Made by a program: the position numbers and the translations under genes
The notes under the pieces: model-generated
What the model saw: only the letters and a program-made list of their open reading frames with translations
Database searches by the model: none
Told to the model about the DNA's origin: nothing
Source of the DNA: a virus
Lineage: Duplodnaviria > Caudoviricetes
DNA: 64,000 bases
Virus record (IMG/VR): IMGVR_UViG_3300000203_000003
Location: 1 to 64,000 of that record
Direction: 5' to 3' (one strand)
In this document: one piece after another, positions 8,701 to 52,451 of the stretch
Numbering within the stretch: position 1 is the stretch's first letter
Layout of the letters: each line of letters opens with the position of its first letter

Positions 8701-8701
8701 A

Positions 8702-10368: not shown

Positions 10369-10375
10369 TCAGTAT

Positions 10376-10404: not shown

Positions 10405-10445
10405 AAGCACTTATTCAGTTAGTTAACTTTTCAAAGGAAAGAAAA

Positions 10446-11543: not shown

Positions 11544-11544
11544 G

Positions 11545-11593
11545 AAATGGGGCTTAGGCCCCATTTGACTTTAAATCGCCCCTGTGTTATAAT
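11545..11593 (+). promoter_or_regulatory. Hairpin terminator overlapping early promoter (TTGACT-17-TATAAT)
   Basis: AAATGGGGC-TTAG-GCCCCATTT followed by promoter. Confidence 0.65.
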
Positions 11594-11620
11594 ACATTCT
11601 GAATCGAATAAAGGAACAAA

Positions 11621-12928: not shown

Positions 12929-13035
12929 CCGCGATTGAGTATATTCTGATGACAGCAGTGGCAGGTCTCGGCCTGTCACTATTAGTCCGGGTAGTATATT
13001 GGGCAATAGAATATGTCGATGATAAAATCGATTGA
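12925..13035 (+). CDS. 36-aa single-TM peptide (not in ORF track)
   Basis: MTAIEYILMTAVAGLGLSLLVRVVYWAIEYVDDKID; ATGA overlap. Confidence 0.45.
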   Translation: MTAIEYILMTAVAGLGLSLLVRVVYWAIEYVDDKID

Positions 13036-13258
13036 GGAAGTGACCATATTCGAATCGCCGGATGGTGGTAAGACAATCTTCGCCCGCAAGTCCGGATCAG
13101 TTGATCGTGAAATGATCTATCAGGACCCTAGTGTCCATTACATAGCGCGATGGTATGAATGGAAAGAGATCCTACGCGCCGCAGATGATAACGTCACGCT
13201 CAATGATCTAATTAAAAGAGTAGAGGAAGTCTATGCGCTTGTCAAAGACAACCCGTAA
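13013..13258 (+). CDS. Hypothetical protein
   Basis: IFESPDGGKT motif. Confidence 0.7.
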   Translation: MSMIKSIEEVTIFESPDGGKTIFARKSGSVDREMIYQDPSVHYIARWYEWKEILRAADDNVTLNDLIKRVEEVYALVKDNP

Positions 13259-13605
13259 GTTTCTGGCAGTGTGGTGCTGCGACGGGTTAGAAACGTTGTG
13301 CGACCTAACGGAACTTGAGCGCCGGCAGAACGACTGGGAAAAAGAAGAACCCTGGCGCATCCTCAAGGGAGGAACAACATCGCAACAAACCTGAGGGCCC
13401 GCGCCTACAGTCGATATTGGTGCGCGCCAAGGTCAACAGTCAGCGCCAGTATGAGGTTTATATCTTCAACACTGAAGGCATGACAAAGGAAGATGTAGCG
13501 CAGACGTTTGAGGAAGAACCGCAGTTTATGGCAGACTTCATCCGACTGAATGGCTCAAAAATCTACTCAGATTACTATCCCAAACATAAACGAGTTATTG
13601 AATAA
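13233..13605 (+). pseudogene. Hypothetical gene apparently split by a +1 frameshift at AAGGGAGG (13365-13372)
   Basis: ATG13233 with SD reads MRLSKTTRKFLAVW..WRILK and stops at 13394; the +1 frame continues EEQH..RAKVNSQRQYEVYIF. Confidence 0.5.
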
Positions 13606-13668
13606 AATATTTTAACACCGCTTTTCTCTGTTAAATAGTTTAAAGCATATTTACGAAGGAGAAAGAAT

Positions 13669-14358
13669 ATGAGTTTTACACGACATGTTGGACGCCACGG
13701 TGACCGCAAAGTAGCAGTAGTTTTCCGTGAGATACCAGGCGAGCCACATATGTGCTTGGTTACTTATACCGAAACAATCAATCAGCATATCCATGATCCG
13801 TTGATCAAGTGCATTGACAGTGATATCGGTCAGAACAGCGAAAATCTTGCTGATGCCCTAAATCGGACATACGCACAAGACGGCAGACCTATTTTACAGG
13901 TCCTGCACATGGAAGGTCAGTTGAAGAAGGTTCAGACAGCGGCGATTGTTATGACACCTAATCCTAACACAAAGATCAAGTTGGATGAACTGAACACAAT
14001 GCTTGACGAAATGAAGCTCGGTGAAGCTGCCGTGAAGAAAATGGCAGACATGGACAAGAGCATGGGTATGCAGTCGCCGGGCGAAGTCGCCAAGCGTATG
14101 CGTGTGCCTGAAGCAGCCGTGACCGCAGCAGGCGATGACGTTCTTGGTGACGCATCACTGGCTAAGCAACGTATCGCACAAGCTACTAAGATGGCAGCAG
14201 AAGCAAAAGGATTGCTTGCTGAATCTGAACGACTGATGGCAGAAGCAGCCACACTTGATCCGACAACAGCGCCTGCAAAGGTAAAGAAAGTGTCACCTGC
14301 AGCGGTAGAAGTCACCACTAAACGCAAGTATGTTCGGAAAGTAGCGAATGTCACCTGA
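13669..14358 (+). CDS. Hypothetical protein (late promoter upstream)
   Basis: TAAATA near 13632, AAGGAG SD. Confidence 0.75.
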   Translation: MSFTRHVGRHGDRKVAVVFREIPGEPHMCLVTYTETINQHIHDPLIKCIDSDIGQNSENLADALNRTYAQDGRPILQVLHMEGQLKKVQTAAIVMTPNPNTKIKLDELNTMLDEMKLGEAAVKKMADMDKSMGMQSPGEVAKRMRVPEAAVTAAGDDVLGDASLAKQRIAQATKMAAEAKGLLAESERLMAEAATLDPTTAPAKVKKVSPAAVEVTTKRKYVRKVANVT

Positions 14359-14644
14359 ATTTGTCGCTAAGTGGGAACACATTCTTGCTGACGTAGAGAA
14401 GAATAAGATTCCCATTCAGTTCATTAAGAAGTTGGTTATTCGGTTACAAGGCAAAAAGCAACAAACTGTTAATATTCACAACTTACTAAAGCAAGGGCTT
14501 GAACCTGAACAAGTTGAAGAGGTGTTGAACAGAAAACTTGAAGAACTGGACGAAATTATTGTCAGTGTCGAGTTTATTCTTAACGTCGAATCAATCGCAG
14601 AAACGGTACAGCCCCTTACTGACGAGATGCTGAAAAATCTATAA
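14348..14644 (+). CDS. Hypothetical protein
   Basis: Overlapping coupled ORF. Confidence 0.7.
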   Translation: MSPEFVAKWEHILADVEKNKIPIQFIKKLVIRLQGKKQQTVNIHNLLKQGLEPEQVEEVLNRKLEELDEIIVSVEFILNVESIAETVQPLTDEMLKNL

Positions 14645-14673
14645 TGTGGACTTTATTATTAATAGGAGTCAAT

Positions 14674-15291
14674 CTAATCTTCGCGTTGATTTGTATGAAG
14701 TCTCCACCCGTGGATAGATGACTGCTTGCCCTTAATTACTCTACTAAGATTGCCTGCCTCAATGTTGTGTTTCATTCGGAACTCATATTGAGGCATTCTT
14801 ATTACTTCTCCCGATCGTATATTCTCAAACCGGTATACAGTAGAATCAAACCGTGGATTTTTATCAGGGGAATAGTCTACTCGCCTCATGTAATGATTTA
14901 CTCCCGAGAATTTGTCCTTCACATCTTGTTTAGTCGCAGGATTATTGTTACCACGCAGTTTATCCTTTGAACTCTCCTGCCAAACAATGTTAGAAGCACC
15001 TTCACCACCGTCAGTTTTATTTCGGAGTATTCCTGTGTTAATGTCCTTGCGGCCATACCACCTTATTAACCGACGCTCAATCGCAAATGCCCCAATTTCA
15101 GAAAGATTTGTTTCGTGGATTACAATTCTTCTTTCGTCTTTCGGGGTCCAAACCCCCTTGCCGGATTTCCTATGTTGTTGCCATGCCCGAACGCCGGAAC
15201 CCTTGCCTATATAGTAAGGAGTATGATCCTCACGAAGATAGGCATAAGTATAAAATCCTTCTGGTGGGTGATTTCTTGAATAAATAGTCAT
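14674..15291 (-). CDS. GIY-YIG homing endonuclease
   Basis: [31 protein letters not shown]; C-terminal HTH-like domain. Confidence 0.85.
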
Positions 15292-16607: not shown

Positions 16608-17566
16608 AGATTTTAGTAACAGGCGGTCTGGGCCTTATCGGACACAATGTAGTCGCACGATTAGAACAACAGGGGCATGATGTTGTGATTTTTGATACGC
16701 GAACAACATACGGAATCATCCCGCAAGATGAACTTGATTATCTGATGGAAGAACGATTGAAGAAGATCAAAGCTTACTTAATCTTCCGTACGGACATCTC
16801 CGGCGACAGTGCTTGCAGAATCATTCAGTCATATCGACCTGAGGTGGTGATGCACCTAGCAAGCTTCCCCAGACAGAAAGTTGTCAACAACAATCCGCAA
16901 CTTGGATCAAAGACAATGAGCGAGGGACTTTTGAATCTCCTCGAGGCGAGTGTCCAGGCGAAGGTTAAACGCTTCATGTATATCAGCAGCAGCATGGTCT
17001 ACGGTGACTTTACTGATGATGTACGTGAGGATTATGATTGTCGCCCACAGGGACAATACGGCATTATGAAATATGCTGGTGAGTTGCTTGTCAAAGACTA
17101 CACTAGGAAGCATGGTATGGCTCATACGATCATCCGACCAAGCGCGGTATACGGTCCGCTTGATGTGGAGGATCGCGTCATTGCGAAGTTTATGCTTCAG
17201 GCAATGCGTGGTGAAACGCTCAAAGTAAATGGATCAAACGAAACTCTGGACTTCACTTATGTCCAGGATGCCGCAGATGGATTCGTTGCAGCGGCCCTAA
17301 GTGATGCGACAGTTAACAGAACATACAACATCACCAAGAGCCATTCCAGGACGCTACTTGAGGCAGCGGAACTTGCCGTGAAGATCGTCGGAAAGGGAAA
17401 CATCGAGGTTCGTGGTAAGGACGCTGACTTCCCGAGTCGAGGTGCTCTGAACATCGATGCTGCTCGTCGAGACTTTGGATTCGACCCAAAAATAGATGTA
17501 GAAGAAGGCTTCCAGAAGTATTACGACTGGCTTTCAACATCACCATATTGGCAGAGCAGAATATGA
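16604..17566 (+). CDS. NAD-dependent epimerase/dehydratase
   Basis: VTGGLGLIG, SSSMVYG, YGIMK, RPSAVYGP, DFTYV.D. Confidence 0.9.
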   Translation: MKILVTGGLGLIGHNVVARLEQQGHDVVIFDTRTTYGIIPQDELDYLMEERLKKIKAYLIFRTDISGDSACRIIQSYRPEVVMHLASFPRQKVVNNNPQLGSKTMSEGLLNLLEASVQAKVKRFMYISSSMVYGDFTDDVREDYDCRPQGQYGIMKYAGELLVKDYTRKHGMAHTIIRPSAVYGPLDVEDRVIAKFMLQAMRGETLKVNGSNETLDFTYVQDAADGFVAAALSDATVNRTYNITKSHSRTLLEAAELAVKIVGKGNIEVRGKDADFPSRGALNIDAARRDFGFDPKIDVEEGFQKYYDWLSTSPYWQSRI

Positions 17567-17847
17567 AAACCGGAGTAAGAGGAACAACGACGGTTGACGC
17601 CGCATACTTCTATGCGCCCTACATACCATTAATGAAAAAACCTAAATATAGTTTCTCCCGGGCGAAATGGTATGTGGCAGAATTTGATCTTAAAGATTAT
17701 GACGAAGTTCGTCAATGGTGTTCGACACAGTTTGGTAAACATGACGGATGTACAGATGCATGGAGTCGTTGGTGGCATCGGTATGAAACAAGCATACACT
17801 TCCGTGATCAAAAAGATTATGTTCTGTTTATGTTAAGATGGTCATGA
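17563..17847 (+). CDS. F-x-L-R-W family protein with N-terminal capsid-like peptide
   Basis: Begins GVRGTTTVDAAYFYAPYIPLM; ends FRDQKDYVLFMLRWS. Confidence 0.7.
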   Translation: MKTGVRGTTTVDAAYFYAPYIPLMKKPKYSFSRAKWYVAEFDLKDYDEVRQWCSTQFGKHDGCTDAWSRWWHRYETSIHFRDQKDYVLFMLRWS

Positions 17848-28246: not shown

Positions 28247-29314
28247 ATGGCAAAGGCTTTTGATTTAAGCAAATTCCGTCGAGGAATTACAAAGAGTATT
28301 GAAGGGCTTAGTATAGGCTTCAATGATCCGACAGACTGGATCAGTACTGGTAACTACGCACTGAACTATTTAATATCAGGTGCATTTGATAGAGGAATAC
28401 CCTTGGGTAAAGTTACAGTGTTTGCAGGAGAATCTGGTGCCGGCAAGAGTTTTATCTGTTCGGGTACCCTTATTAAGAATGCCCAAGATCAGGGTATTTT
28501 TGTGGTATTGATTGATACTGAGAACGCATTGGATGAATCCTGGCTAAAGGCTCTAGGAGTAGATACTTCTGCTGAAAAACTATTAAAATTGAACATGGCG
28601 ATGATAGACGATGTGGCCAAAGTGCTAAGTGACTTCGTAAAAGAGTATCGAACCCTCAGTGAGGAAGATCGGCCCAAAGTTTTATTCGTAATTGATTCAC
28701 TTGGTATGTTGCTGACTCCGACTGATGTGAATCAATTTGAAGCCGGCGAGATGAAGGGCGACATGGGACGCAAGCCTAAGGCTTTAACCGCTCTTGTTCG
28801 CAATTGTGTGAACATGTTCGGGTCCCTAAATATAGGGTTGGTTGCAACCAACCACACTTATGCAAGCCAGGATCCTTATAACCCTGATGACAAAATTAGT
28901 GGCGGCGCCGGATTTGTATACGCCAGTTCAATAGTTGTGGCCATGAAGAAACTCAAGTTGAAGGAAGATGAAGATGGTAATAAGGTCTCAGAAGTTTTAG
29001 GAATACGTGCCGGGTGCAAGATTATGAAAACGAGATATGCCAAACCTTTTGAGGATATTCAATTACATATACCGTATGCTACTGGACTTAGCCCATATAG
29101 CGGCTTTTTTGAGATGCTAGAAAAGAAGAAGATGATCACTAAAGAGGGTAATAGATATGCATATACTGATTTAGATGGGGTGGTGCATAAATACTTTCGT
29201 AAAGAATGGAACAGAAACGAAAACGGTATATTTGATTTGGTTATGAAAGAATTCGAAGCCAAAGATAAAAATACAATCTCACCTACTGAAACTGATGAAA
29301 ACAATATTGCCTAA
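28247..29314 (+). CDS. uvsX: RecA-like recombinase UvsX
   Basis: ISTG..LNYLISG, AGESGAGKS, DTENA, VIDSLG, TNHTY. Confidence 0.93.
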   Translation: MAKAFDLSKFRRGITKSIEGLSIGFNDPTDWISTGNYALNYLISGAFDRGIPLGKVTVFAGESGAGKSFICSGTLIKNAQDQGIFVVLIDTENALDESWLKALGVDTSAEKLLKLNMAMIDDVAKVLSDFVKEYRTLSEEDRPKVLFVIDSLGMLLTPTDVNQFEAGEMKGDMGRKPKALTALVRNCVNMFGSLNIGLVATNHTYASQDPYNPDDKISGGAGFVYASSIVVAMKKLKLKEDEDGNKVSEVLGIRAGCKIMKTRYAKPFEDIQLHIPYATGLSPYSGFFEMLEKKKMITKEGNRYAYTDLDGVVHKYFRKEWNRNENGIFDLVMKEFEAKDKNTISPTETDENNIA

Positions 29315-36941: not shown

Positions 36942-38423
36942 ATGACAAAAAAATGTATTATACATATAGCCGATGAAGTGAACCTCAAGATTACCGGCCT
37001 GGAACTTTCGGAGCGAAAGGCCCTGATGAAGCTATTCTCCTTCGATGTGCCGGGAGCGCGATATATGCCAAGTGTCCGATTGGGGCGCTGGGATGGCAAG
37101 GTCAGCTTCTTCTCACTGGGTGGGTCAAGCTACATCAATCTGCTTGAAGAAATCATCCCCGTAGTTGATCGCGCAGGATACGACATTGAAGTAGAAGATA
37201 CCCGAGACTATTCAACATCGTTTACATTCGACATGGTCAAAGAAGATACATATTCCTCGACACTATGGCCCAAGGGGCATCCGGTTGAAGGCACGCCGAT
37301 CATGCTACGTGACTATCAAGTTGAAATCGTGAATAACTTCCTGGCGAACCCACAATGTCTCCAGGAGATTGCCACAGGTGCTGGCAAGACTTTGATGACA
37401 GCATCGTTAAGCAAGAGCGTTGAAGCATATGGACGATCAATCGTTATCGTCCCTAACATTAGTCTGGTCACACAAACAGAAGCAGATTACATCAACATGG
37501 GACTTGACGTTGGGGTATACTTCGGCGGCAGAAAAGAGATTGGCAAAACGCACACAATCTGCACCTGGCAATCATTAAATGTTCTGCTGAAGAATACTAA
37601 AGCGGGTACCGGTGACACAACTATCGGTGAGTTTCTTGAAGGTGTTGTCTGTGTCATTGTTGACGAGGTGCACCAGGCCAAGGCAGATGCGCTGAAAACA
37701 TTGCTGACAGGCGTGATGGCGAAGATACCAATCAGATGGGGTCTGACTGGTACGATACCTAAAGCGAAGTTTGAAAGTCAAGCATTGCTTGTCAGTCTTG
37801 GTCCTGTTATTAATAAGTTGGCAGCATCAGAATTACAAGAACAAGGGGTGTTGGCAAATTGCCATGTGAACATCATTCAATTACAAGACAAGGTTGAGTA
37901 TACGAATTATCAGCAAGAGTTAAAATATCTTGTCAGTGATGACACACGAATGACGGCGATTGCCAGTGAGATTGCTAAAGTAAATCGAACCGGTAACACT
38001 CTGGTACTTGTTGACCGAATTGAAGCAGGCGAAATACTGTTGAGTAAACTCGCCGGCCATAGCACACTCAAAGATGATGTGGTGTTCGTATCAGGCGGGA
38101 CCAAGTCATCTACCCGCACAGAACAATATGAAGATGTGGCCACAGCAACAAATAAGATCATCATTGCCACATACGGTGTAGCAGCAGTTGGTATTAATAT
38201 TCCTCGGTTATTCAACGTTGTGTTGATCGAACCAGGGAAGAGTTTTGTCCGAACTATTCAAAGTATCGGACGAGGGTTGCGTATGGCCCACGACAAATCG
38301 TTTGTTCAAATAACGGATATCACTTCAAGTTGTAAGTTCTCTAAGAGGCATCTTACCCAAAGAAAAGCTTTCTACAAGGATGCGAAGTATCCCTTCGATG
38401 TAACTAAAGTCAACTACAAATAA
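36942..38423 (+). CDS. uvsW: SF2 DNA helicase UvsW-like
   Basis: LRDYQ, ATGAGKT, VDEVH, GLTGT, QSIGRGLR. Confidence 0.9.
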   Translation: MTKKCIIHIADEVNLKITGLELSERKALMKLFSFDVPGARYMPSVRLGRWDGKVSFFSLGGSSYINLLEEIIPVVDRAGYDIEVEDTRDYSTSFTFDMVKEDTYSSTLWPKGHPVEGTPIMLRDYQVEIVNNFLANPQCLQEIATGAGKTLMTASLSKSVEAYGRSIVIVPNISLVTQTEADYINMGLDVGVYFGGRKEIGKTHTICTWQSLNVLLKNTKAGTGDTTIGEFLEGVVCVIVDEVHQAKADALKTLLTGVMAKIPIRWGLTGTIPKAKFESQALLVSLGPVINKLAASELQEQGVLANCHVNIIQLQDKVEYTNYQQELKYLVSDDTRMTAIASEIAKVNRTGNTLVLVDRIEAGEILLSKLAGHSTLKDDVVFVSGGTKSSTRTEQYEDVATATNKIIIATYGVAAVGINIPRLFNVVLIEPGKSFVRTIQSIGRGLRMAHDKSFVQITDITSSCKFSKRHLTQRKAFYKDAKYPFDVTKVNYK

Positions 38424-39262: not shown

Positions 39263-39842
39263 AGCAAAAGCACCCGGGACAGAAAAGTTCGCTGATCAAG
39301 AGGTTGATCTGTTCGGAATCCTTGCAGCTATTGACAAGAAGGATTACGGATACTATGAACGGCTCAGTGACATTCAACAAAAGAAGGTTGCGCTGTTCAT
39401 TCTTGTTCACTGGACCTCTGCGATAAAAGCATCTGCGGAGATTCAAGGATACTATCTGCGTTCGGTTGATTATCATGCGAACAAGTATCTGTTCAATGAG
39501 AATGTGATGCGTCATCCGAAGTTGATATGGCTGATGTTGTGCGCCAGTTCTCCGGGCCTGGGTAAATATCAGCATCAATGGATTCCGCATATCAGCCCTA
39601 AGGTGTCAACGCTGACAGCGGATGCGAATCTGGCTGATATGAAAAAGTATTACACGAAGCTGTATCCGAAAGCAACAGCAAATGATATCACGGAACTCTC
39701 AAAAGAGTTTGTTCGTGATCAAAAACGAAAACGCTATCTGGCCACAATCTATCCTAATCTGAAACTATCTGATGTTGAAACCCTTAGTCATATCATCACC
39801 GATGAAGAAATCAACCAATACGAAGCCGACCGAGGAAACTAA
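39252..39842 (+). CDS. Hypothetical protein
   Basis: Operon packing. Confidence 0.7.
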   Translation: MATKAKAPGTEKFADQEVDLFGILAAIDKKDYGYYERLSDIQQKKVALFILVHWTSAIKASAEIQGYYLRSVDYHANKYLFNENVMRHPKLIWLMLCASSPGLGKYQHQWIPHISPKVSTLTADANLADMKKYYTKLYPKATANDITELSKEFVRDQKRKRYLATIYPNLKLSDVETLSHIITDEEINQYEADRGN

Positions 39843-40518
39843 ACCGGTATTCTCTTGTGAGTTTTGTCGCAGAGTATTCCTTCGTGAGAAAACCATGTTC
39901 ACGCATATATGTGAGCGGAAACATCGTTGGGCTGAAAAAGATAAACAGGGTCCTCGCATCGGCTTTCAAGCATGGCTACAGTTCTATGCGAAGAATTCAA
40001 TGGGCAAGAAGAATCGCACCCAGGAAGAGTTCATCAAAAGCGCATACTACACGGCGTTCATCAAGTTCGGAACATACTGTGCCGGCGCGAATGTTGTTAA
40101 TGTAAGTAGATACACTGACTGGCTGCTGAAAGAACAGATCCGAATTGACAGTTGGAATCAAGATACCAACTATACCAAATTCCTTATAGAGTATATCCGC
40201 GTCGAGGATCCGATGGATGCGCTGGCCCGCAGCATTGAAACGACAATCAAAATGGCTGAAACGGAACGGATTTTGGCGCATGATATTCTGCGTTATGGGA
40301 ACCCGAATAAGATATGCTATCAAATCACGCTTGGAAAGATAAGTCCCTGGATGCTTTACCAGAGCGAAAGTGGCGTAGAGTTTTTATCAAAACTAAATGC
40401 TGACCAAGTACGAATCATTAATGACTACATAAATCCCGAGCAATGGGCAATCAAGTTTAAACGGGATCCGGAATCAGCAACGCAAGTAAAAGACTTATTG
40501 GTCGCTGCTGGCTATTAA
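39802..40518 (+). CDS. Hypothetical protein with N-terminal zinc finger
   Basis: CEFC...F......H.C. Confidence 0.7.
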   Translation: MKKSTNTKPTEETKPVFSCEFCRRVFLREKTMFTHICERKHRWAEKDKQGPRIGFQAWLQFYAKNSMGKKNRTQEEFIKSAYYTAFIKFGTYCAGANVVNVSRYTDWLLKEQIRIDSWNQDTNYTKFLIEYIRVEDPMDALARSIETTIKMAETERILAHDILRYGNPNKICYQITLGKISPWMLYQSESGVEFLSKLNADQVRIINDYINPEQWAIKFKRDPESATQVKDLLVAAGY

Positions 40519-41087
40519 TTTAGCTGCTTTGGTTGCTTTACATTTAGCAATACTTTCAGCAGTATTAGTATTAAGTGTTCCGTTCTTGCGCCTGCTCTCT
40601 TTTAATTTAGCTTTGCTCTCATCAGTCCAAGTATTGAGATTACCGTTTTTGCGTCTGGTAGCGATTCGCTTGGCGATATTCTCCGGAGTAGGTTTTAATG
40701 TTCCGTTTGCTGCCATTGTTGCTAATCTTTTTTTGGTGCTTTCAGGCTTAGTTAAGTATGTATTGTTAGACCTCCGCGCCGCGACGACCTTGGCAATTAT
40801 TTCGGGGGTAGTACCGCCGTTACCGGATTCCGGTTTTAAGTTGGCCCATTCATCACTCTCGACAACGTTCCATTCTTCACTGTAATGGATTCCCATTCTT
40901 TAAGTTCATCTTTGGATTGGCACTCGCGGATTATTTCGGTTGTTATATCTTTGCCGTGTTTATTTAAATGGCGCTCCCAATGTAAACCTGAACCGAGGTA
41001 TTTGTGAGGATCTTTGCGTTTTGTCTGACAGAGGTATTTTAGACCGGTAATATTATGGGTCTTTACCATGAGGTAATAAATAGTCAT
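40495..41087 (-). pseudogene. GIY-YIG-type homing endonuclease split by a frameshift near 40893
   Basis: YLMVKTH..TGLKYL.QT..Y.GSG..W then ELKEW|GIHYS..WNVVES..WANL.PESG.GG in another frame; one G missing. Confidence 0.78.
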
Positions 41088-41160
41088 GCTGGTGCTCCTT
41101 ATTTAGTTATAGCATTAGAGAGGGTGGGAAGTCCAATTCCGCGATCCTCACTTCTATTTA
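41077..41160 (+). ncRNA. HEG-leader module copy D
   Basis: CTGGTGCT/AGCATTAG; GAGGGT-G-GGAA/TTCC-GCG-ATCCTC; TAAATA at both ends. Confidence 0.7.
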
Positions 41161-41168
41161 TCTTCGGC

Positions 41169-41197
41169 TTGACATTAAATCATTTTTATGTTATAAT
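41169..41197 (+). promoter_or_regulatory. Early promoter driving the small-gene array
   Basis: TTGACATTAAAT..TATAAT, 17-nt spacer. Confidence 0.8.
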
Positions 41198-41228
41198 GTA
41201 TTGTACTTAAAACAAGCAGGATACTGAA

Positions 41229-41453
41229 ATGGATTACAGTAGAGATGTTGACATTGATGTTAAAGATGAGAATCACTTTGACGAACTCCTTGATTGGTGC
41301 GAACAAAATGTAGCCGTGTTGCCAGTTAGTGCAAGTTGCTTGCCGTGGACATGGTCTGGTGATGCTACTCATTCGCCAACTACATCACACAACAATACCT
41401 TCTCCTTTGCGCGTCAGAGCGATGCCATGATGTTTATCCTGAGGTGGTTATGA
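41229..41453 (+). CDS. F-x-L-R-W family protein 1
   Basis: Ends FSFARQSDAMMFILRWL. Confidence 0.75.
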   Translation: MDYSRDVDIDVKDENHFDELLDWCEQNVAVLPVSASCLPWTWSGDATHSPTTSHNNTFSFARQSDAMMFILRWL

Positions 41454-41683
41454 ACGCCAAGCAACGCCGACAAATCGAACGCCGACTCTGCCATAAGGTT
41501 GTCTTCCGCTATAAACCATACACTGATTTTGACGAAGACGACCTGGACGAGGAAGTTCAACACCGGTGTAATAAGAATATCGGACGAGAGAACTGGAGAA
41601 GGGATCAAGGTGGCTGGGCATCTCGTGGATACTTCTTTGCTGATCAGAAGCATGTTACCTTGTTTGTATTGAGGTGGTTATGA
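41450..41683 (+). CDS. F-x-L-R-W family protein 2
   Basis: Ends FFADQKHVTLFVLRWL. Confidence 0.75.
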   Translation: MNAKQRRQIERRLCHKVVFRYKPYTDFDEDDLDEEVQHRCNKNIGRENWRRDQGGWASRGYFFADQKHVTLFVLRWL

Positions 41684-41874
41684 CTACTTTTAATTTTAAT
41701 GTAAACGATTTTCCTAATTTACGTGAGGAGTTTGGTCGATCAAACTATACCAATTGGATCACTTTTTTATATGATCTTGGGTATAAATTTCGTTGGAATC
41801 ATTATGCTTCAAATAAAAAATTCGTTGAAATGGATGAGGCTGATTTTGTGTGGTTCTCATTGAGGTGGTCATGA
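41680..41874 (+). CDS. F-x-L-R-W family protein 3
   Basis: Ends MDEADFVWFSLRWS. Confidence 0.75.
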   Translation: MTTFNFNVNDFPNLREEFGRSNYTNWITFLYDLGYKFRWNHYASNKKFVEMDEADFVWFSLRWS

Positions 41875-42119
41875 TATACACTGACATTAACTCATTGTAT
41901 CCAAACATTATGTCATATATACCACAGAAATTCTTCAAAATCGCTGAGGCTGAAGTGGATGGTGCCATGTGGTATACTCTGTTCATTGAACCTGAGGTTA
42001 TGATGTGGTTGAAGTCTATTAACTCATCTCAGTGGGTATATGAGCCCGGCGGCAGCTGGCGGCTGTATGTTGATGTTCACGAACAACTTTATTCGGCACT
42101 GGTGCTGCGCTGGGGTTAA
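41871..42119 (+). CDS. F-x-L-R-W family protein 4 (PolB-motif-like N-terminus)
   Basis: Begins YTDINSLYPNIM; ends ALVLRWG. Confidence 0.75.
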   Translation: MIYTDINSLYPNIMSYIPQKFFKIAEAEVDGAMWYTLFIEPEVMMWLKSINSSQWVYEPGGSWRLYVDVHEQLYSALVLRWG

Positions 42120-42120
42120 T

Positions 42121-42339
42121 ATGGCGAAGTATCATTCAGAAGGCGGCCAGTTTGACCCGGAGTTTAGACACCGGGTAAGCGTTGATCGTCCAACTTATGA
42201 AATGATCGAATGGTGTAATCAGTATCCGACGAAAGGATCCGGTGACCGGTATTACATAAAGTGGAGTCCTCGCACCAGTGCTATTTTTTCGTTTGAAACA
42301 GAGGAACCAAGTATTATGTTTGCGTTGAGGTGGTTATGA
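42121..42339 (+). CDS. F-x-L-R-W family protein 5
   Basis: Ends FSFETEEPSIMFALRWL. Confidence 0.75.
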   Translation: MAKYHSEGGQFDPEFRHRVSVDRPTYEMIEWCNQYPTKGSGDRYYIKWSPRTSAIFSFETEEPSIMFALRWL

Positions 42340-42524
42340 AGGTATATCAAGTTGTGGGTTATCCGAAAAGTCATTACTTCGTCAGAACCTGGTGTGAGTT
42401 TGATGAGATAATGCGCTGGATGCATAAGAACAAAGTGGGCTATCTACATGAATCCTATAGCCATCACGGCATCGGATTCAGTCTTCGTTCTAATGCTGAA
42501 TGGTTTCTATTGAGGTGGGAATGA
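42336..42524 (+). CDS. F-x-L-R-W family protein 6
   Basis: Ends AEWFLLRWE. Confidence 0.75.
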   Translation: MKVYQVVGYPKSHYFVRTWCEFDEIMRWMHKNKVGYLHESYSHHGIGFSLRSNAEWFLLRWE

Positions 42525-42808
42525 AACTTAAAAAACTTGACAAACGAATGACTGGGTATGGTGACTTTCAATACTCTGTGGACTTCCCGGTTAACCGCGG
42601 TAAGGTCCTGATGGATTTCTTTGAAGTGCGGGAATGGTGCTTTGAACAATGGGGAAGATCCGCAGAGATTGATATATGGCAGAAGTTCCCGCAGATTCAG
42701 AATCCTGCTTGGGCATGGGAACGCGGAGAATACAACAAGATGTATCGGTGCAGAATCTTTCTGGCATCAGATAAAGAAGCTGAATGGTTTCTATTGAGGT
42801 GGTTATGA
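42521..42808 (+). CDS. F-x-L-R-W family protein 7
   Basis: EVREWC..W; ends DKEAEWFLLRWL. Confidence 0.75.
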   Translation: MKLKKLDKRMTGYGDFQYSVDFPVNRGKVLMDFFEVREWCFEQWGRSAEIDIWQKFPQIQNPAWAWERGEYNKMYRCRIFLASDKEAEWFLLRWL

Positions 42809-43089
42809 ATCTCTTTTACGAACTTGCTGATACTATGGTGTGTAAACGACCTGACGGACAAAAGTATCTGGCTCAGTATGGGCTGAAACTCAACAGGGTT
42901 ATGGATCCGGCAACTTTTGAAATGGTTGATACCCTCAACTACAACCGTCGAGCATTGTGGTATTCAGATAGAGTCTGGCTTGAGGGAGACACCGAAGTCA
43001 AGTATTTCAAGAATAGATTTACCGGTGACGATACAGTAGTTGATATGAAGGAATTTATGTGGATTAAACTAAAGGCTCAAACATTATGA
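42805..43089 (+). CDS. Array protein 8 (divergent C-terminus)
   Basis: Ends EFMWIKLKAQTL. Confidence 0.7.
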   Translation: MNLFYELADTMVCKRPDGQKYLAQYGLKLNRVMDPATFEMVDTLNYNRRALWYSDRVWLEGDTEVKYFKNRFTGDDTVVDMKEFMWIKLKAQTL

Positions 43090-43334
43090 GTTGGCAAAAC
43101 GATTTGATAGAGGCTCAGAATTGGTTTAAGTTTGAACCAATGGACGCACAAACGCTGGCTGAACTTGATAAAGTGTTCCGAGCAAAACGCCCAGGACCCT
43201 GGAAGATGACCTGGAATAGAAACGCCGCGAACTATTCATACAACAGACTACGAGCAATGAATGAGTATCTGGTTTGCATTGTATTTGAAAATGAACAAGA
43301 CGAAGTATGGTGGTTATTACAAAATGGAGACTGA
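43086..43334 (+). CDS. Array protein 9 (divergent C-terminus)
   Basis: Ends FENEQDEVWWLLQNGD. Confidence 0.7.
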   Translation: MSWQNDLIEAQNWFKFEPMDAQTLAELDKVFRAKRPGPWKMTWNRNAANYSYNRLRAMNEYLVCIVFENEQDEVWWLLQNGD

Positions 43335-43581
43335 GGAAGAATTCAACAAACGAGTCAGCAGATTCGTTCAACTGGGACTGATGATGGGTGGTAACATGCC
43401 AGTAGATTATATCACTTGTATTGAAGTGAACTGGTATGAATCGTTTGCTCTGCTACCGCACAAAACAATCGCCGGCAAATGGGTATGGTTCAGAAAGATA
43501 TTCAAACGACGAGTATGGAAATGCACCGGCTTCGCTGACGAACCCTTTACTGAATACGGAGAACTATTTGATCTGTTATGA
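43324..43581 (+). CDS. Array protein 10 (unrelated small protein)
   Basis: W.ESFA.LP..TI.G.WVW. Confidence 0.65.
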   Translation: METEEEFNKRVSRFVQLGLMMGGNMPVDYITCIEVNWYESFALLPHKTIAGKWVWFRKIFKRRVWKCTGFADEPFTEYGELFDLL

Positions 43582-43976
43582 TTACCTATATCAAAGATAA
43601 AACTCGGCAGTTTTTTCATGCCCGTGATTTGAAACGGATGGGAATAACGCAGGCACAATATGATCGTGCGTATGATCCTGATATCAATTTCCGTGCCACC
43701 AGAGTGAGAGATATGTATCCGGGCTATCCGTATGTTTTTGAAAAACAATACTCTGATGCGTTCTGGAGTCAATTCGGCGACTGGGAACAGGGTCTGACTA
43801 TGATGAGAGTATGGTGCCAGGCGAACTGCCAAAGCAAATGGCGCGATGACTTTCACCGAGTGATGAAAGATTACTGGAGTGAATGGGTGTGTAGTGAAAT
43901 CGGCGGCGGAGATGTTCTGTTCTTCGCTTTCAAAAGTGAGCAAGAGTATATGTGGTTTACACTGAGGTGGGCATGA
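43578..43976 (+). CDS. F-x-L-R-W family protein 11
   Basis: Ends FAFKSEQEYMWFTLRWA. Confidence 0.75.
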   Translation: MITYIKDKTRQFFHARDLKRMGITQAQYDRAYDPDINFRATRVRDMYPGYPYVFEKQYSDAFWSQFGDWEQGLTMMRVWCQANCQSKWRDDFHRVMKDYWSEWVCSEIGGGDVLFFAFKSEQEYMWFTLRWA

Positions 43977-44206
43977 AATACAGAGAATACGAATTACTCA
44001 ATGATCCGGGATATGTTGATGAATATTGCGTCGATCTATCACCGTATCCAGTGGATCGGACCGAGGAAGAACGGGCTAAATTGTGGCAGATTTCAGTTGA
44101 TGCTATAGATAATTTTAACGCCGACTCATTGGGTTCAAGATTGTTTTTCAAATCTGATGATGACCGACAGAAGTTTTTAACTTGGTATACATTGAGGTGG
44201 ACATGA
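43973..44206 (+). CDS. F-x-L-R-W family protein 12
   Basis: Ends FLTWYTLRWT. Confidence 0.75.
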   Translation: MKYREYELLNDPGYVDEYCVDLSPYPVDRTEEERAKLWQISVDAIDNFNADSLGSRLFFKSDDDRQKFLTWYTLRWT

Positions 44207-44454
44207 AGTTCTGGAACAAAGATAAAGATATTCGGCGCAGATGCTGGACCAAAGTGAATCACCCTCTGAGGACTGCTCGTTGGGTGCTGAACTCAGGTGA
44301 TGCTATCTTTACCGAGCGTCTTCTCTATGAGGATTTGAAGCGTTGGTGTCAGCAACAGGCAAGCCCCGGACGATTCTATCACTACTACGGTGCAGATTCA
44401 TGGTGGTTTGAGAACCCACATGACGCCACGCACTTTCTATTGAGGTGGGCATAA
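44203..44454 (+). CDS. F-x-L-R-W family protein 13
   Basis: Ends WFENPHDATHFLLRWA. Confidence 0.75.
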   Translation: MKFWNKDKDIRRRCWTKVNHPLRTARWVLNSGDAIFTERLLYEDLKRWCQQQASPGRFYHYYGADSWWFENPHDATHFLLRWA

Positions 44455-44466
44455 CAAAGTAAATAT

Positions 44467-45681
44467 ATGATGAATAAACCTATCTTCTGCGCTTTAGCCT
44501 TCGGATCCGTAAACATAACCACTGAAAATAAGTATTTACCTTGTTGTAATGTTGTACACGGGGAATACAAGTCTAACTACCTTGATCTAGACTCGCCGGG
44601 CGTGCCAACGGCCCGTCTTAATAATTCATGGTTAGTTGATGTGCGGCGGCACCTGAATCAGGGAATATGGCATGAATCTTGTTCATTGTGCGAACACTCA
44701 GAAAAACAAGGCGGTCAGTCGATGCGTAATATTTGGAATATTGCTCTTGCTGACTATTATATTCCCGCTGACTCGGTCGTGAATCCGGACCATGTCAGAT
44801 ATATTAGTGTGGCGTTTAGCAATAAGTGCAATAGCAAGTGCATGACTTGTTCTCCGGATAGCAGTAGCCTTTGGTATGAAGAATTCAATGAGATATCTCA
44901 GGATAAATACATTTACCAGATAATACCGTCGACGGACAGAATACATAGCACCCCGGCCGCACTTCTCAAAACTTTTCCAAATGCTGAACATATCTCTTTG
45001 TTGGGCGGCGAACCGACTATCGCATTTGAGCATGATTCTCTTATAAATGAATTAGTTACTTCTAACAGAAGTAAAAATGTCAGCTTGACGTATGTAACCA
45101 ATCTCACGGGAATCACAGACGAACTCTTAGAAACCTGGAAAAAATTTAAACATGTTACTATTATGGCGTCGATTGACGGGGTGGGGCTGAGTAATGAGTA
45201 TATACGATATCCATTTAAATGGGAAAAAATTGAAAGAAATCTAACACGCCTTTTTGAGTTATCAAAAACTGATCAAATATCAGTTGGATTAAGTTGTACT
45301 GCTGGCATGTTTAACTGCATTGATATTGCTGATTTATTGTTGTATTGGTATAATAAAAGTAAAGAATATGGAATTGATTTCGGAGTATATGTAAATATAG
45401 TGACTAATCCTGAATATGTCGTATCTAACATAATGACAGATAAACACAGATCCGAGGGAATAGAACGATTAAAAATCGTAAAGGAATTATTCGATGCTGA
45501 TACCAATTTAAATACATCCTATTCCGCAGCAGTATCTTTATTGATTACTCATTTGTCATTGCCCAGAGCGAACTCTGACCTTATTAATACTGCAAAGCAT
45601 TTCATATTAGCATCCGATAAATTTAGAAATAGGAGTATCAAAGACTATATTCCGAAAGTATGGCAAGACCTATTTGAATGA
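44467..45681 (+). CDS. Radical SAM protein with N-terminal Cys-rich (SPASM/Twitch-like) segment
   Basis: CNSKCMTC CxxxCxxC, GGEP, SIDG; N-terminal FC..PCC..C..C. Confidence 0.85.
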   Translation: MMNKPIFCALAFGSVNITTENKYLPCCNVVHGEYKSNYLDLDSPGVPTARLNNSWLVDVRRHLNQGIWHESCSLCEHSEKQGGQSMRNIWNIALADYYIPADSVVNPDHVRYISVAFSNKCNSKCMTCSPDSSSLWYEEFNEISQDKYIYQIIPSTDRIHSTPAALLKTFPNAEHISLLGGEPTIAFEHDSLINELVTSNRSKNVSLTYVTNLTGITDELLETWKKFKHVTIMASIDGVGLSNEYIRYPFKWEKIERNLTRLFELSKTDQISVGLSCTAGMFNCIDIADLLLYWYNKSKEYGIDFGVYVNIVTNPEYVVSNIMTDKHRSEGIERLKIVKELFDADTNLNTSYSAAVSLLITHLSLPRANSDLINTAKHFILASDKFRNRSIKDYIPKVWQDLFE

Positions 45682-45866
45682 GAAAGACATATAGATACGA
45701 CCATAAGATCAGCGGTAAAGAGGATAAGATCACCCTCGTCAAATGGCTACGGAGAAACTTAGGGAACAGAGGTGAAGGATGGGACTTTACTTTATCCGGA
45801 GGATATGTTACAATAGACATATGGGATTCGAGGCTCCAGACAATGTACGAAATGTGGAAAGAATGA
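45678..45866 (+). CDS. Small hypothetical protein
   Basis: KWLRRNLG.RG.GWDF. Confidence 0.65.
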   Translation: MRKTYRYDHKISGKEDKITLVKWLRRNLGNRGEGWDFTLSGGYVTIDIWDSRLQTMYEMWKE

Positions 45867-46090
45867 GAACAGACAAGCATACAAAACAGGACACCTGGCG
45901 ACAGCTAAAAGGGTTGGAGCCAGTACAATCTTGGAAATGTAGATTGGGCATTCATCAGTGGACAAATTGGGAATTGTTTGAAGATGAATATGAACGCGGC
46001 AGAGTATCAGTGGCACAATGCTATTGTGCCCGATGTGGCATGCCCCGACGAGAATCCCCACTGACACGAAAAACAAAGAAAGCAACATAA
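45863..46090 (+). CDS. Small zinc-binding hypothetical protein
   Basis: CRLGIHQW..C..C.RCG. Confidence 0.65.
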   Translation: MRTDKHTKQDTWRQLKGLEPVQSWKCRLGIHQWTNWELFEDEYERGRVSVAQCYCARCGMPRRESPLTRKTKKAT

Positions 46091-46093
46091 TGG

Positions 46094-46894
46094 CTATTGT
46101 CGATATTTACATTTATCGCCGTGCCACTTTTTAAGATTGGCGACATCCATTGATCTTTGACAATGGGGACAGGTGTCTAATATTTTTCTTTCCCCGAGAC
46201 CGAGAATCCATCCAATATTTAAATACGGACCAGTATCTTCCGGATCAAGTTGTTTTCTCTCGCTCGGATTGTTTGGATTATGTATCCATTGTTTCCCGGT
46301 GTTCGCTTCTTTGATTTTTTGTTTGTCTGCGTCAGTCCGACTTATTCCGATGTTCCATGGTTTTAGCCCGTTGACTACTAGTTTTTTCCTCGTTTCGGAC
46401 ATCTTGTGACACTCGGCCTCAGTTCTAGGGATACCTTTGTTCCATGCAGTTTTACCTCTCTTAGAAGCCGCAATGCGTTCTTTCCATTCTGGAGTGAATA
46501 TTTCAGTCGTTCTTTCAGGATGTTTTTTACCAAAGTTAGGATGGGCCTCTCCTCGTCGGCCCCGAAGAATCGCAGCCCGTTGTTCTTTGACTTGTTCGTA
46601 TATCCTAGATGATGGCTTGTATCTTTTGCCCAACTTCTTTGTATTAGACATGAACCACAGCGCATGAACCATTTTATATCTATTGTTACCTGTTGTAAAC
46701 TTTGGTAGAAGCAGATGACAGATGAAATGTTCCCGTGCAGTAAGTTTTACTATATTTGATGCGGCGTCCGTTCCGCCTAGGCTTCTAGGCAGAATATGGT
46801 GTTTCTCGGTATAGGCGTTCGGGTCATTTACCCTTGACAAGGCTACATTGATTATGTTATAATAACATTTATTATATTTGTTTAGTAAGTTCAT
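46094..46894 (-). CDS. HNH homing endonuclease with NUMOD repeats
   Basis: EKHHILPRSLGG..N.VKLTAREHFICH; WNKG repeats; C-terminal CPHC..H..KC. Confidence 0.87.
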   Translation of the reverse strand: MNLLNKYNKCYYNIINVALSRVNDPNAYTEKHHILPRSLGGTDAASNIVKLTAREHFICHLLLPKFTTGNNRYKMVHALWFMSNTKKLGKRYKPSSRIYEQVKEQRAAILRGRRGEAHPNFGKKHPERTTEIFTPEWKERIAASKRGKTAWNKGIPRTEAECHKMSETRKKLVVNGLKPWNIGISRTDADKQKIKEANTGKQWIHNPNNPSERKQLDPEDTGPYLNIGWILGLGERKILDTCPHCQRSMDVANLKKWHGDKCKYRQ

Positions 46895-50044: not shown

Positions 50045-51031
50045 ATGCTTAACATAGCCTCTATTATTCCCGGAAAGAAAAAGAATACCAGTACTGGGTG
50101 GTTAACTTTTAATTCAGTATGTTGTCAGCACCGCGGTCACAAAGCTGACAGGCGAATGCGCGGTGGTATTAAAGTAGAAGGAAATACCCAAATATACCAT
50201 TGTTTCAATTGTGGATACAGTTGCGCCTTTACTATGGGCCGGAGCATCAATCAAAAGACAACTAATCTTCTCAACTGGTGCGGGATAGACACTGAACAAA
50301 TTCAGCGATGGTCATTTGAGTCGCTTCAACGCAAAGACTTGTTAGACTTTACACATACGAAGAAGCATAAATCAAAGATAACATTCAAAGAGTTCAAGGT
50401 GCCACCAGAGGCAACTCTTCTGGATCAAACAAATCCCGAACACCAGCACTATGTTGACTATCTTCTAAAGAGACACATCAATCCAGCAGAGTATCCATTC
50501 ATGATTACTCCGGGCATGCCGGGACGATACAGAAATCGGATCGTTATCCCGTATACATACAATAACAAGATCGTCGGACAGACAAGTAGATTTTTAGATA
50601 CGCTGACACCAAAGTATCTCAATGAACAGCAACCGGGATATGTATTTGGTATCGACTTTCAGAAGCCTGAGTGGCAAGTATGTATTCTGGTCGAAGGGAT
50701 ATTTGATGCGCTGAGTATCAATGGCTGTGCCCTCACACATAACACGATCAATGAGGATCAGGCCAGGTTACTTGCACAGTTGAACAGACGCATCATTGTA
50801 GTACCAGACAGAGACTTGACTGGTATGGATATATGCGACCGAGCATTAGAGTTAGGATACAGCGTCAGCATACCTGATTGGGCACCGTACATAAAAGATG
50901 TGAATGACGCAGTAGTAGAATATGGGAAGTTGCCGACGCTGTTAAGCATATTAGAAGCGGCAACTTCATCAAAGATAAGAGTAGAAATTCAAAGGAACAA
51001 AATTGTCAAAAGATTACAAAAAGGAAGATAA
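50045..51031 (+). CDS. DNA primase (T4 gp61-like)
   Basis: Zn finger C..H..YHCFNC, RIVIP, TOPRIM VEGIFDA, PDRD, KDVNDA. Confidence 0.9.
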   Translation: MLNIASIIPGKKKNTSTGWLTFNSVCCQHRGHKADRRMRGGIKVEGNTQIYHCFNCGYSCAFTMGRSINQKTTNLLNWCGIDTEQIQRWSFESLQRKDLLDFTHTKKHKSKITFKEFKVPPEATLLDQTNPEHQHYVDYLLKRHINPAEYPFMITPGMPGRYRNRIVIPYTYNNKIVGQTSRFLDTLTPKYLNEQQPGYVFGIDFQKPEWQVCILVEGIFDALSINGCALTHNTINEDQARLLAQLNRRIIVVPDRDLTGMDICDRALELGYSVSIPDWAPYIKDVNDAVVEYGKLPTLLSILEAATSSKIRVEIQRNKIVKRLQKGR

Positions 51032-52451
51032 GCAGGTAGAATACACCCCTGAGGTGCAGACATTATTTTTAAGGATGATGCTTACCAACGCGGTGTTGTA
51101 TACTCGCGTGGCAAACATTATGAATGCCGCAAACTTTGATAAGACGCTGCGCCCTGTTGCTGAGATGTTCAAGGAGCATGGTGAGAAATACAATGTGTTA
51201 CCAGATGCCTCACAGATCAAAGCATTGACGGGTCAAGACATTGAACCAATCCCCGAACTGAATGAAGGGCACTATCAATGGTTTCTGGATGAGTTTGAGA
51301 AATTCACAAAGAAGCAAGAACTTGAACGCGCAATCCTGAAGAGTGCTGATTTGTTAGAGAAGGGCGGGGACTTCTCCCCAGTCGAAAAGCTGATCAAAGA
51401 TGCAGTTCAAATCAGTCTGCAAAAAGATATGGGCACTGATTACTTTGCTGATCCGCGTGGACGATTGCTGGCACTGAAAACTAACAACGGACAGAATAGC
51501 ACAGGGTGGCCTACTATGGACAGGGCCCTATACGGTGGATTCAACCGCGGCGAACTTCAAATCTTTGCGGGTGGATCTGGTTCCGGCAAGTCTTTGTTTC
51601 TTCAAAATCTTGCTGTCAACTGGTCACAAGCAGGATTCAACGGAGCATACATCACACTTGAATTGGCTGAAGGTCTCTGTTCAATGCGTATCGATTCGAT
51701 GATGACCGATACATCGTCACGAAACATCTTCAAAGACATTGACAACGTTGAGATGAAGGTCAAGATGATGGCGAAGAAGTCTGGTAAGATGCGTATCAAG
51801 TATATGCCCGCACAGTCGAATGTGAATGATATTCGGGCATACTGTAAAGAGTTGATGATTCAAACTGGAGTCAAAGTTGACTATTTGTGCGTAGATTATC
51901 TTGATCTGATCATGCCAGTCTCTGTTAAAGTATCACCAGAAAATCTGTTCATCAAGGACAAATATGTCGCAGAAGAATTGCGTAATCTGGCAAAAGAATT
52001 GAATGTTCTGTTTGTGACAGCATCACAGCTTAATCGTTCGGCAGTTGAAGAAATTGAATTTGATCACAGTCATATCTCAGGTGGTATCAGTAAGATTAAT
52101 ACTGCGGATAACGTTATGGGTATTTTTACTAGTCGTGCTATGCGTGAACGTGGACAGTATCAACTTCAACTGATGAAAACTCGTTCCAGTTCGGGTGTTG
52201 GTCAGAAGATTGAGTTACAATTCAATGTGGAAACTCTGCGAATCACTGATGATGGCGGCGGAGAAGATGAATCAAGCTACAGACCACAGACAGCGCCGAC
52301 TCCGTCCCCGTTAGAAACAATAACAGGGGTGAAGCCTACTCCGTTTACTGACATATCACAACTTGCCGAAGTTGAACCCTGGACTAAGCACGTTGTCTCT
52401 GACGTTCAAGGCTCTAAGTTAAAGTCTCTGTTAAATTCCCTGAAGAAATGA
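51003..52451 (+). CDS. Replicative DnaB-like helicase (T4 gp41-like)
   Basis: STGW, GGSGSGKS, TLEL, VDYLDL, TASQLNR, KTR. Confidence 0.92.
   Translation: MSKDYKKEDKQVEYTPEVQTLFLRMMLTNAVLYTRVANIMNAANFDKTLRPVAEMFKEHGEKYNVLPDASQIKALTGQDIEPIPELNEGHYQWFLDEFEKFTKKQELERAILKSADLLEKGGDFSPVEKLIKDAVQISLQKDMGTDYFADPRGRLLALKTNNGQNSTGWPTMDRALYGGFNRGELQIFAGGSGSGKSLFLQNLAVNWSQAGFNGAYITLELAEGLCSMRIDSMMTDTSSRNIFKDIDNVEMKVKMMAKKSGKMRIKYMPAQSNVNDIRAYCKELMIQTGVKVDYLCVDYLDLIMPVSVKVSPENLFIKDKYVAEELRNLAKELNVLFVTASQLNRSAVEEIEFDHSHISGGISKINTADNVMGIFTSRAMRERGQYQLQLMKTRSSSGVGQKIELQFNVETLRITDDGGGEDESSYRPQTAPTPSPLETITGVKPTPFTDISQLAEVEPWTKHVVSDVQGSKLKSLLNSLKK

Follow-up and report, generated by a model that had tools for sequence, protein, structure and literature searches.

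How might a phage keep a chain of small genes open to the gain and loss of members while still expressing all of them? The question is raised by positions 41229-44454 of the viral DNA analysed here, a 64-kb window that forms the start of a 141,978-b IMG/VR virus record. In this locus 13 small genes (g1 to g13; Table 1) follow one another, most of them closing with the tripeptide leucine-arginine-tryptophan (LRW) and one further residue. The reading we favour, to which we give a probability of about 70%, is that the locus is a hyperplastic region of small genes of mostly one family, in which the bases of the shared C-terminal tail double as the next gene's Shine-Dalgarno (SD) sequence and the resulting junction provides homology for recombination. 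The source of the DNA is an uncultured freshwater jumbo phage, and the 142-kb record is a fragment of its genome (CheckV completeness 41%). The large terminase encoded in the record shares 47-49% identity with its counterparts in the jumbo phages PA5oct and Phosso, and the window DNA is present in freshwater metagenomes from many studies.

The 13 genes are co-directional on the + strand and encode proteins of 62-132 amino acids (aa), with no gap of more than 1 nucleotide (nt) between them. Ten (g1-g7 and g11-g13) end in L-R-W-x-stop, eight of these as F-x-LRW. Across the whole record, whatever the codons, this ending is found 11 times on the + strand (in the ten array genes and at 17833) and not once on the - strand. 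These features agree with an initial annotation of this DNA, which had described 13 open reading frames (ORFs), ten with this ending, behind a promoter at 41169. The predicted promoter matches the sigma-70 consensus at 12/12 positions, is the sole such site in 40400-46200 and stands 32 nt upstream of the start of g1.

At the junctions, the end of one gene and the start of the next are written in the same bases. There are 12 copies of TGAGGTGG in the window where 1.6 would be expected, a number reached by 0 of 100 shuffles; nine of the 12 lie at array junctions, and eight of these nine run on as NNATGA. All nine junctions listed in the initial annotation, eight of them of this form, were found again, and the eight sites of TGAGGTGGNNATGA are the only ones in the 141,978-b record, all of them inside the array; the opposite strand has none. 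Stop and start overlap as ATGA at 10 of the 12 internal junctions. The tail is spelt TTG AGG TGG NNA TGA, which puts GAGGTGG 2 nt before the ATG at eight junctions, with GAGG ending 5 nt ahead of the stop-overlapping ATG. GAGGTGG complements the 3' end of 16S rRNA (a match of 6-7 nt to the anti-SD sequence), and a spacing of 5 nt is the optimum. The single trailing codon would appear to have two uses, as it would set the SD spacing and supply the A of ATGA. GAGGTG precedes just one of the 68 long genes of the window, so that the motif is special to the array.

Codon choice in the tail points the same way. Among the 81 distinct members for which DNA was in hand, related genes being counted as independent, the tail arginine is AGG in 39 of 60 (65%), as against 9.9% of 4,779 background arginine codons from the long genes of the same contigs (Fisher p 2e-24); in the bodies of the family genes the share of AGG is 10%. 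AGG was used by 31 of the 50 members in which the next ATG falls at -4..+4 relative to the stop and by 8 of the 25 others (p 0.026), an ATG at that distance being present in 50 of the 75 motif-bearing members in relatives. The tail leucine codon ends in G in 45 of 68 members, compared with about 30% in the background, and this G lengthens the SD pairing. That selection acts on the tail bases, and not on the peptide alone, appears well supported by these counts, and the LRW codons are very probably the ribosome-binding site of the next gene; the double use proposed in the initial annotation is consistent with both the codon bias and its association with an overlapping start.

The peptide itself also seems to be selected, as had been proposed: LRW, LKW or LTW recurs across some 4,900 clusters of related proteins and is kept with codons that do not form an SD, in g4 (CGC), in the Phosso tail FKLRWS (CTC CGC TGG) and in terminal members whose tail is LKW or LTW. 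The other spellings of LRW reported for g4 and for the gene at 17563 are as described (Table 1). On the simplest account, a structural tail of old standing, with L and W nearly invariant and R preferred, may have been recruited in this lineage to act as the next gene's SD. In relatives whose middle tail residue is encoded by AGA, AAA or ACA, the last base of that codon and the following TGG create an ATG that lies 7 nt ahead of the stop and shares the frame of the usual ATGA start (for example L010:4143-4421, L022:13573-13857 and L023:11993-12298). This ATG is the only candidate start of the next ORF in nine members, so the tryptophan codon may there supply part of the start codon.

To what kind of protein does this tail belong? 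The family was defined by an alignment, A2 (a 50-sequence profile), which was searched against 1.84 billion representatives and matched 4,938 clusters (50% identity) at E<=1e-3. Nearly all of these proteins are 55-145 aa long, and the match reaches their last residues. Among the 258 best matches, 212 have the tail LRW, 12 LKW and 7 LTW, and exactly one residue follows the W in 204. The taxa are phages (Viruses/Uroviricota), the source annotation is "hypothetical", and Pfam, PHROG and NCBIfam contain no family model for any array member. As judged by these profile matches, it is a very large, unnamed, phage-only family whose domain always stands at the extreme C-terminus.

Membership was assessed with a profile made solely from members of other phages and containing no window sequences. 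It recovers g1, g2, g3, g5, g6, g7, g9, g11, g13 and the gene at 17563, with E values from 8e-16 to 3e-4; g12 is marginal (E 0.018) and g4, g8 and g10 are missed (E 0.5-0.8). The array is therefore mostly, not wholly, of one family: of the 13 genes to which the initial annotation had given a shared scaffold, nine are members by profile, g12 is marginal, and g4, g8 and g10 are not demonstrable members. No relation of g8 and g10 to the family was found by profile (E 0.6 and 0.5) or by hhalign. In g4 membership of the body is undetectable (E 0.76) and only the tail is shared; its orthologues in the relatives L081, L086 and L088, 71-73% identical overall, have AGG at the tail arginine in L088 and L081. 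The N-terminal part of g4 (window 41871-41912) is strongly divergent among these orthologues, so that turnover of the variable N-terminal extension occurs even inside a single type of cassette. Pairwise identity among the window members is 15-32%. The 14th member, at 17563-17847, was found with a hidden Markov model of the array; it is solitary and lies between sugar-modification genes.

An AlphaFold (AF2) model of g7 (predicted local distance difference test (pLDDT) score 77; predicted template-modelling score (pTM) 0.70) has a four-stranded sheet and two helices in the order strand-strand-helix-strand-strand-helix. On this model the family domain would be a small alpha/beta unit whose last helix ends in F-x-L-R-W and exactly one residue. 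The model matches only uncharacterised phage protein models in BFVD and the ESM Atlas, at template-modelling (TM) scores of 0.7-0.78, and a Foldseek search of the PDB gave nothing at E<=1e-3. In an exhaustive VIA fold search the best Z score, 6.0, was tied among generic two-layer alpha/beta domains, with DCoH-like entries at 4.8-5.0; the matches being weak and generic, no fold was assigned from solved structures. An AF2 model of g4, built with four orthologues, has the element order of g7, but its pLDDT of 52 is too poor for use.

Same-strand tandem arrays of the family occur in every longer IMG/VR contig retrieved via the radical SAM gene that adjoins the array, and IMG/VR searches with g12 and g4 found no relatives. 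When 50,697 records of cultured phages were searched with the array (megablast) and with g11, P0113 and P0114 (tblastn), there was no match. A profile search of whole cultured-phage records gave 36 matches in Sinorhizobium phage Phosso and 5 in PA5oct, and no members in Vibrio phage 2.275.O. The tails in Phosso and PA5oct include FKLRWS, FKLAWS and FKLRFG. The Phosso matches are spread over many scattered clusters of its 469-kb genome (PV764938.1), for example 1-15000, and this cultured phage carries a tRNA-Arg(CCU), the reader of AGG. We found no paper on an LRW motif in phage, and the PA5oct omics paper gives no timing for the PA5oct family members.

Some members carry additional N-terminal sequence. 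The N-terminus of the member at 17563 (17563-17634) resembles positions 301-326 of Pfam Gp23, the major capsid protein, at E 5e-5 to 8e-4, below the cut-off, and a 136-aa member (L086:7594-8001) resembles Gp23 positions 1-44 at E 9e-12, above it. Pieces of capsid protein thus seem to have been captured into the variable N-terminal part of family members; the phage's own capsid gene is absent from the 142-kb fragment. Two long proteins, P0116 (4,818 aa) and P0151 (1,176 aa), match the profile partially (positions 5-39 and 18-46) in 22 and 7 stretches, which may represent either repeated copies of the W-C helix region or noise from low-complexity sequence.

Does the junction also mark the place where genes are exchanged? 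Close relatives, reached via g13 homologues and including a 355-kb phage, share a backbone of helicase, phrog_11058 gene, array, 62-aa gene, exonuclease, primase and DnaB, and lack both the GIY-YIG-like ORFs and the radical SAM gene seen here. Their arrays hold from 8 to 22 genes. The common cassettes (g2, g4, g5, g6, g9, g11-like, g12 and g13) are colinear, and the cassettes between them differ. In L086 and L088 the ORFs at 40495-41087, the promoter and g1 are all missing and the array begins directly after the phrog_11058 gene; in L086 it is the g2 orthologue that sits directly behind this gene. The g12 gene is present in L093 and not in L092, L088 or L086.

The clearest case is a 227-nt unit in L090 that is absent from L089, bounded by a 15-nt direct repeat, TTGAGGTGGCTATGA, within flanks that are 100% identical over 608 and 1,515 nt. 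The L088 scaffold has a run of N exactly at this site, between two junction copies; apparent differences of 100 nt between L088 and L089 were rejected, as they correspond to scaffold gaps filled with N. Starting about 20 nt upstream of the g12 start and continuing through the end of g13, L093 matches the window at 94.4% identity, and to the left of that point it is instead 94-96% identical to L092/L088. One cassette with both its junctions is common to L086 and L088 at 97.3% identity against a background of 68-81%. In nine of 12 homology blocks the right end is no more than 7 nt away from a stop codon (binomial p 3e-9), and left ends are less sharp, at 0-56 nt from starts. Contigs of four other lake runs leave the window at 41860, 42525 and 43953 and enter other family tails or another cassette. 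The joints 41226>41450, 41447>44195, 41874>42785 and 43067>43308 were set aside, as one side measures 20-26 nt and so short a side could be any conserved junction. The junctions of the array itself carry TTGAGGTGGNNATGA repeats, and the 24-nt identity between the ends of g6 and g7 (42495-42518 = 42779-42802) noted in the initial annotation is exact.

These comparisons support the view that, among close relatives, whole units are gained, lost and replaced at the junction, by crossovers that may be driven by homology. The cassette array envisaged in the initial annotation is upheld to this extent; free shuffling of order is not, since close relatives are colinear and order differs only in distant ones. 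In the latter, subfamilies A-F recur in differing orders. The contig of P0100, a 94% relative of g7, showed a different gene order. Neither invariant gene content among relatives nor loss of LRW wherever no SD is needed was found. The cassette shared by L086 and L088 (L086:5950-6180 and L088:3265-3492) has a frame-breaking 1-nt insertion in L086, either a recent pseudogene or a sequencing error. In L081, a 127-aa protein (1055-1438) is a chimera, its first 69 aa being 67% identical to g7 and its last 94 aa 60% identical to g11, which implies in-frame recombination inside family genes too, besides that at junctions.

The same data could be read as the product of ordinary tandem duplication, with paralogues inheriting the junction for translation only and breakpoints at gene ends left by selection after illegitimate recombination. 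Phage mosaics commonly have their boundaries at gene ends, where selection on random joints can leave them, the common cassettes keep their order in close relatives, and the left ends of the homology blocks are blunter than the right. Moreover, the array is 100% identical over 3,401 nt in five full-length assemblies of one population, and such identity in at least five assemblies means that turnover is not fast. Yet inheritance by duplication sits poorly with an indel of exactly one unit between L089 and L090, with direct repeats at its ends and identical flanks, with a crossover inside a junction in L093, and with junction DNA that is near-identical, over 24 nt in one pair, between members as divergent as these; on balance we consider it unlikely. 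A still less probable view, which we regard as very doubtful, is that AGG TGG is kept for a reason other than ribosome binding: a rare-codon pause, mRNA structure or a protein site at the DNA level. AGG is indeed a rare codon in these phages, and no tRNA gene is present in the window or in the 142-kb record, so there is no phage tRNA-Arg(CCU) in the latter; g13, moreover, keeps AGG with no close downstream start. Against this view stand the textbook pairing and spacing of GAGGTGG ahead of the ATG, the use of AGG together with an overlapping start, and a leucine third base biased toward a longer SD.

Several observations also weigh against the reading that we favour. Three of the 13 genes are not demonstrable family members. 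The g13 gene retains TTGAGGTGG although the next start is 15 nt off, and the ATGA overlaps of g8/g9 and g10/g11 have no SD at all, so the motif is neither always needed nor always used. Elsewhere in the window, genes mostly have a weak AGGA-type SD or none (17 of the 68 long genes have even AGGA). The codon tests treat relatives as independent, and their p-values are therefore too small; the effect is nonetheless large. A single perfectly clean repeat-bounded indel was found, between two metagenome assemblies, and the lack of fast turnover and the general habit of phage mosaics to break at gene ends count here as well. Finally, SD use, translational coupling and early timing are all inferred from the DNA, the label "early" being taken from the consensus promoter only.

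The radical SAM gene directly after g13 invites yet another explanation, that the small genes encode precursors or substrates of this enzyme in a locus resembling those of ribosomally synthesised and post-translationally modified peptides (RiPPs). All 33 IMG/VR relatives of the enzyme have family arrays adjoining on the same strand, and in more distant phages, too, the radical SAM gene still adjoins family arrays; this association, however, came from searching with the enzyme. The gene is not beside the arrays of L086-L093, the closest to ours, and contigs of three runs join 44459 to 45738/45741 and so bypass it. It is, on the evidence of these contigs and relatives, an optional insertion that adjoins the array on its right. 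Family members are moreover predicted to be folded domains, and they form thousands of clusters, with 36 scattered copies in Phosso. As the closest arrays lack the enzyme, we find the RiPP reading the least credible of those weighed here and highly improbable.

Turning to the setting of the array, homing-endonuclease-like genes occur near it, in addition to the helicases listed in Table 1, and the minus-strand ORFs at 40495-41087 look like a split or decayed homing endonuclease. The Pfam families of the neighbours, precomputed for L042, are helicase, DUF6794, radical SAM, NUMOD3, exonuclease and DnaB. No Rfam family was found in 40400-46200, and exact-protein look-ups of g6 and g7 returned the same strain only. 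In g9 the tail WWLLQNGD is kept in orthologues, and g10 starts 11 nt inside the end of g9. Several window genes (8158, 15404, 50045 and 59741) lack an SD and have a TATAAT that ends 6-8 nt before the ATG, suggesting that their mRNAs are leaderless or have very short leaders.

Table 1. Features of the array, its promoter and other genes of the 64-kb window. E values are those of the family profile; blank cells, no entry.
Feature	Position	Strand	Length (aa)	C-terminal tail	Profile E	Remarks
Sigma-70 consensus promoter (predicted)	41169..41197	+				TTGACA, 17 nt, TATAAT; TG before -10 box
g1	41229..41453	+	74	FILRWL	6e-11	CTGAGGTGGTTATGA junction to g2
g2	41450..41683	+	77	FVLRWL	7e-9	ATGA overlap with g3
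g3	41680..41874	+	64	FSLRWS	3e-8	ATGA overlap with g4
g4	41871..42119	+	82	LVLRWG		Tail CTG CGC TGG GGT TAA; next ATG 1 nt past stop
g5	42121..42339	+	72	FALRWL	3e-9	ATGA overlap; orthologues in L086 and L088
g6	42336..42524	+	62	FLLRWE	3e-5	ATGA overlap
g7	42521..42808	+	95	FLLRWL		Family member; structure-modelled
g8	42805..43089	+	94			No LRW tail; ATGA overlap to g9 without SD-like motif
g9	43086..43334	+	82	WWLLQNGD	3e-4	Divergent member
g10	43324..43581	+	85			ATGA overlap to g11
g11	43578..43976	+	132	FTLRWA	4e-11	Long subfamily E
g12	43973..44206	+	77	YTLRWT	0.018	Marginal profile match
g13	44203..44454	+	83	FLLRWA	5e-10	Conserved array anchor
14th family member	17563..17847	+		FMLRWS	8e-16	Subfamily A; tail TTA AGA TGG TCA TGA
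Left anchor, phrog_11058 gene	39772..40518	+				Bounds hyperplastic region
Two overlapping ORFs	40495..41087	-				Weak GIY-YIG (SegE-like) similarity, E 0.05, below cut-off
Twitch-domain radical SAM gene	44467..45681	+				NF033640, 265 bits (cut-off 170); outside family
Right anchor gene	45678..45866	+	62			Behind array in all close relatives
RecA-like (RecA/UvsX-like) gene	28247..29314					
UvsW-like helicase	36942..38423					Near array
DnaB-like helicase	51003..52451					Near array

How, then, would such a locus work? On the reading that we favour, the hyperplastic region at 41229-44454 would be packed with promoterless small genes, mostly of one family, served as a chain by the one sigma-70 promoter at 41169. 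GAGGTGG would pair with the 16S anti-SD just ahead of the ATG that overlaps the stop, so that a ribosome ending one gene would be placed to start the next. As the same approximately 15 nt end every unit, the junction would also be a short homology for recombination, which could delete, insert or replace whole units and would always rebuild a working junction; genes for a RecA/UvsX-like protein and for a UvsW-like helicase are present in the phage, and such crossovers would be homology-driven. Transcription would be early, and the products would be accessory host-interaction factors with a fixed scaffold and variable loops and N-terminal extensions. That the host polymerase makes them early, as accessory proteins, would fit the consensus promoter, their small size, a fixed core bearing variable loops and N-terminal extensions, strain-level turnover and the hyperplastic position.

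One short sequence would in that case be under three constraints at once, from protein structure, translation initiation and recombination, which makes it a testable case and suggests a route by which jumbo phages may turn over many small accessory genes without breaking operon expression. The family, with thousands of clusters and dozens of copies in some cultured jumbo phages, is named in no database, and its fixed scaffold with variable parts makes it a candidate source of host-takeover or counter-defence proteins. A bolder proposal, which we offer tentatively and hold to be somewhat less likely than not to be right, is that the 15-nt junction is a selected, self-restoring socket (scaffold end, ribosome-binding and start site, and crossover point) across a clade of giant freshwater phages, so that any member could plug into any related array. 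If so, members, including those bearing capsid fragments, would be expressed at once in any related array, and the system would be a homology-based counterpart of integron cassettes, sustaining a pan-genome of small host-interaction proteins. The cultured carriers Phosso and PA5oct open both coupling and protein function to bench work.

It remains to ask how the array compares with known systems. Phosso, with its 36 matches, and PA5oct (the region of gp209, gp210, gp201 and gp202) have proteins of the same superfamily by profile, with the W-C helix, the F-x-F strand and a D-A-x-x-F-K-L-x-W/F tail; unlike the array genes, theirs, annotated "hypothetical protein", often spell the tail in other codons and are not regularly chained by GAGGTGG-NN-ATGA. 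Integron arrays likewise consist of promoterless cassettes behind one promoter, with content that varies between relatives, but the present array has no attC-type site, its exchange would use short homology in place of site-specific recombination, and its bearer is a lytic jumbo phage. The annotated neighbours (the precomputed Pfam of L042) include no integrase, the rest of the record not having been scanned for one.

A closer parallel on the side of exchange is offered by promoter-early stem-loop (PeSL) cassettes, which mediate modular shuffling in the hyperplastic regions of T4-type phages (Arbiol et al., 2010, PMC2839356; Comeau et al., 2014, PMC4122927). As there, small non-essential genes fill a hyperplastic region between core genes, a short regulatory repeat stands at unit boundaries, and the repeat delimits the insertions, deletions and replacements by which close relatives differ. 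The repeat here, however, is about 15 nt of coding sequence and translation signal, as opposed to an intergenic promoter joined to a terminator stem-loop; one promoter would serve the whole chain, and the units are homologous to each other. Indeed, no other promoter site above 9/12 lies inside the array (20 sites in total against a shuffle mean of 15), and the four terminator-like sites, against 3.9 expected in shuffles, include none at a junction. Exchange in the array thus appears to work like PeSL modular shuffling while failing the promoter and stem-loop features of that system.

On the side of translation, genes are known to be translated in a coupled way where stop and start overlap and the SD is intragenic (Huber et al., 2019, PMC6728339; review PMC12548453). 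The array resembles such termination-reinitiation pairs in its 4-nt ATGA overlap (TGATG/TAATG in relatives), in the chaining of genes in one operon, and in an SD inside the upstream ORF, 5-8 nt before the start. It differs in that the SD consists of the codons of a family-wide C-terminal motif, present at nearly every junction and in thousands of homologues, and in that one spacer codon (NNA) fixes the spacing. The array may accordingly be described as a putative family-wide instance of intragenic-SD coupling at ATGA overlaps.

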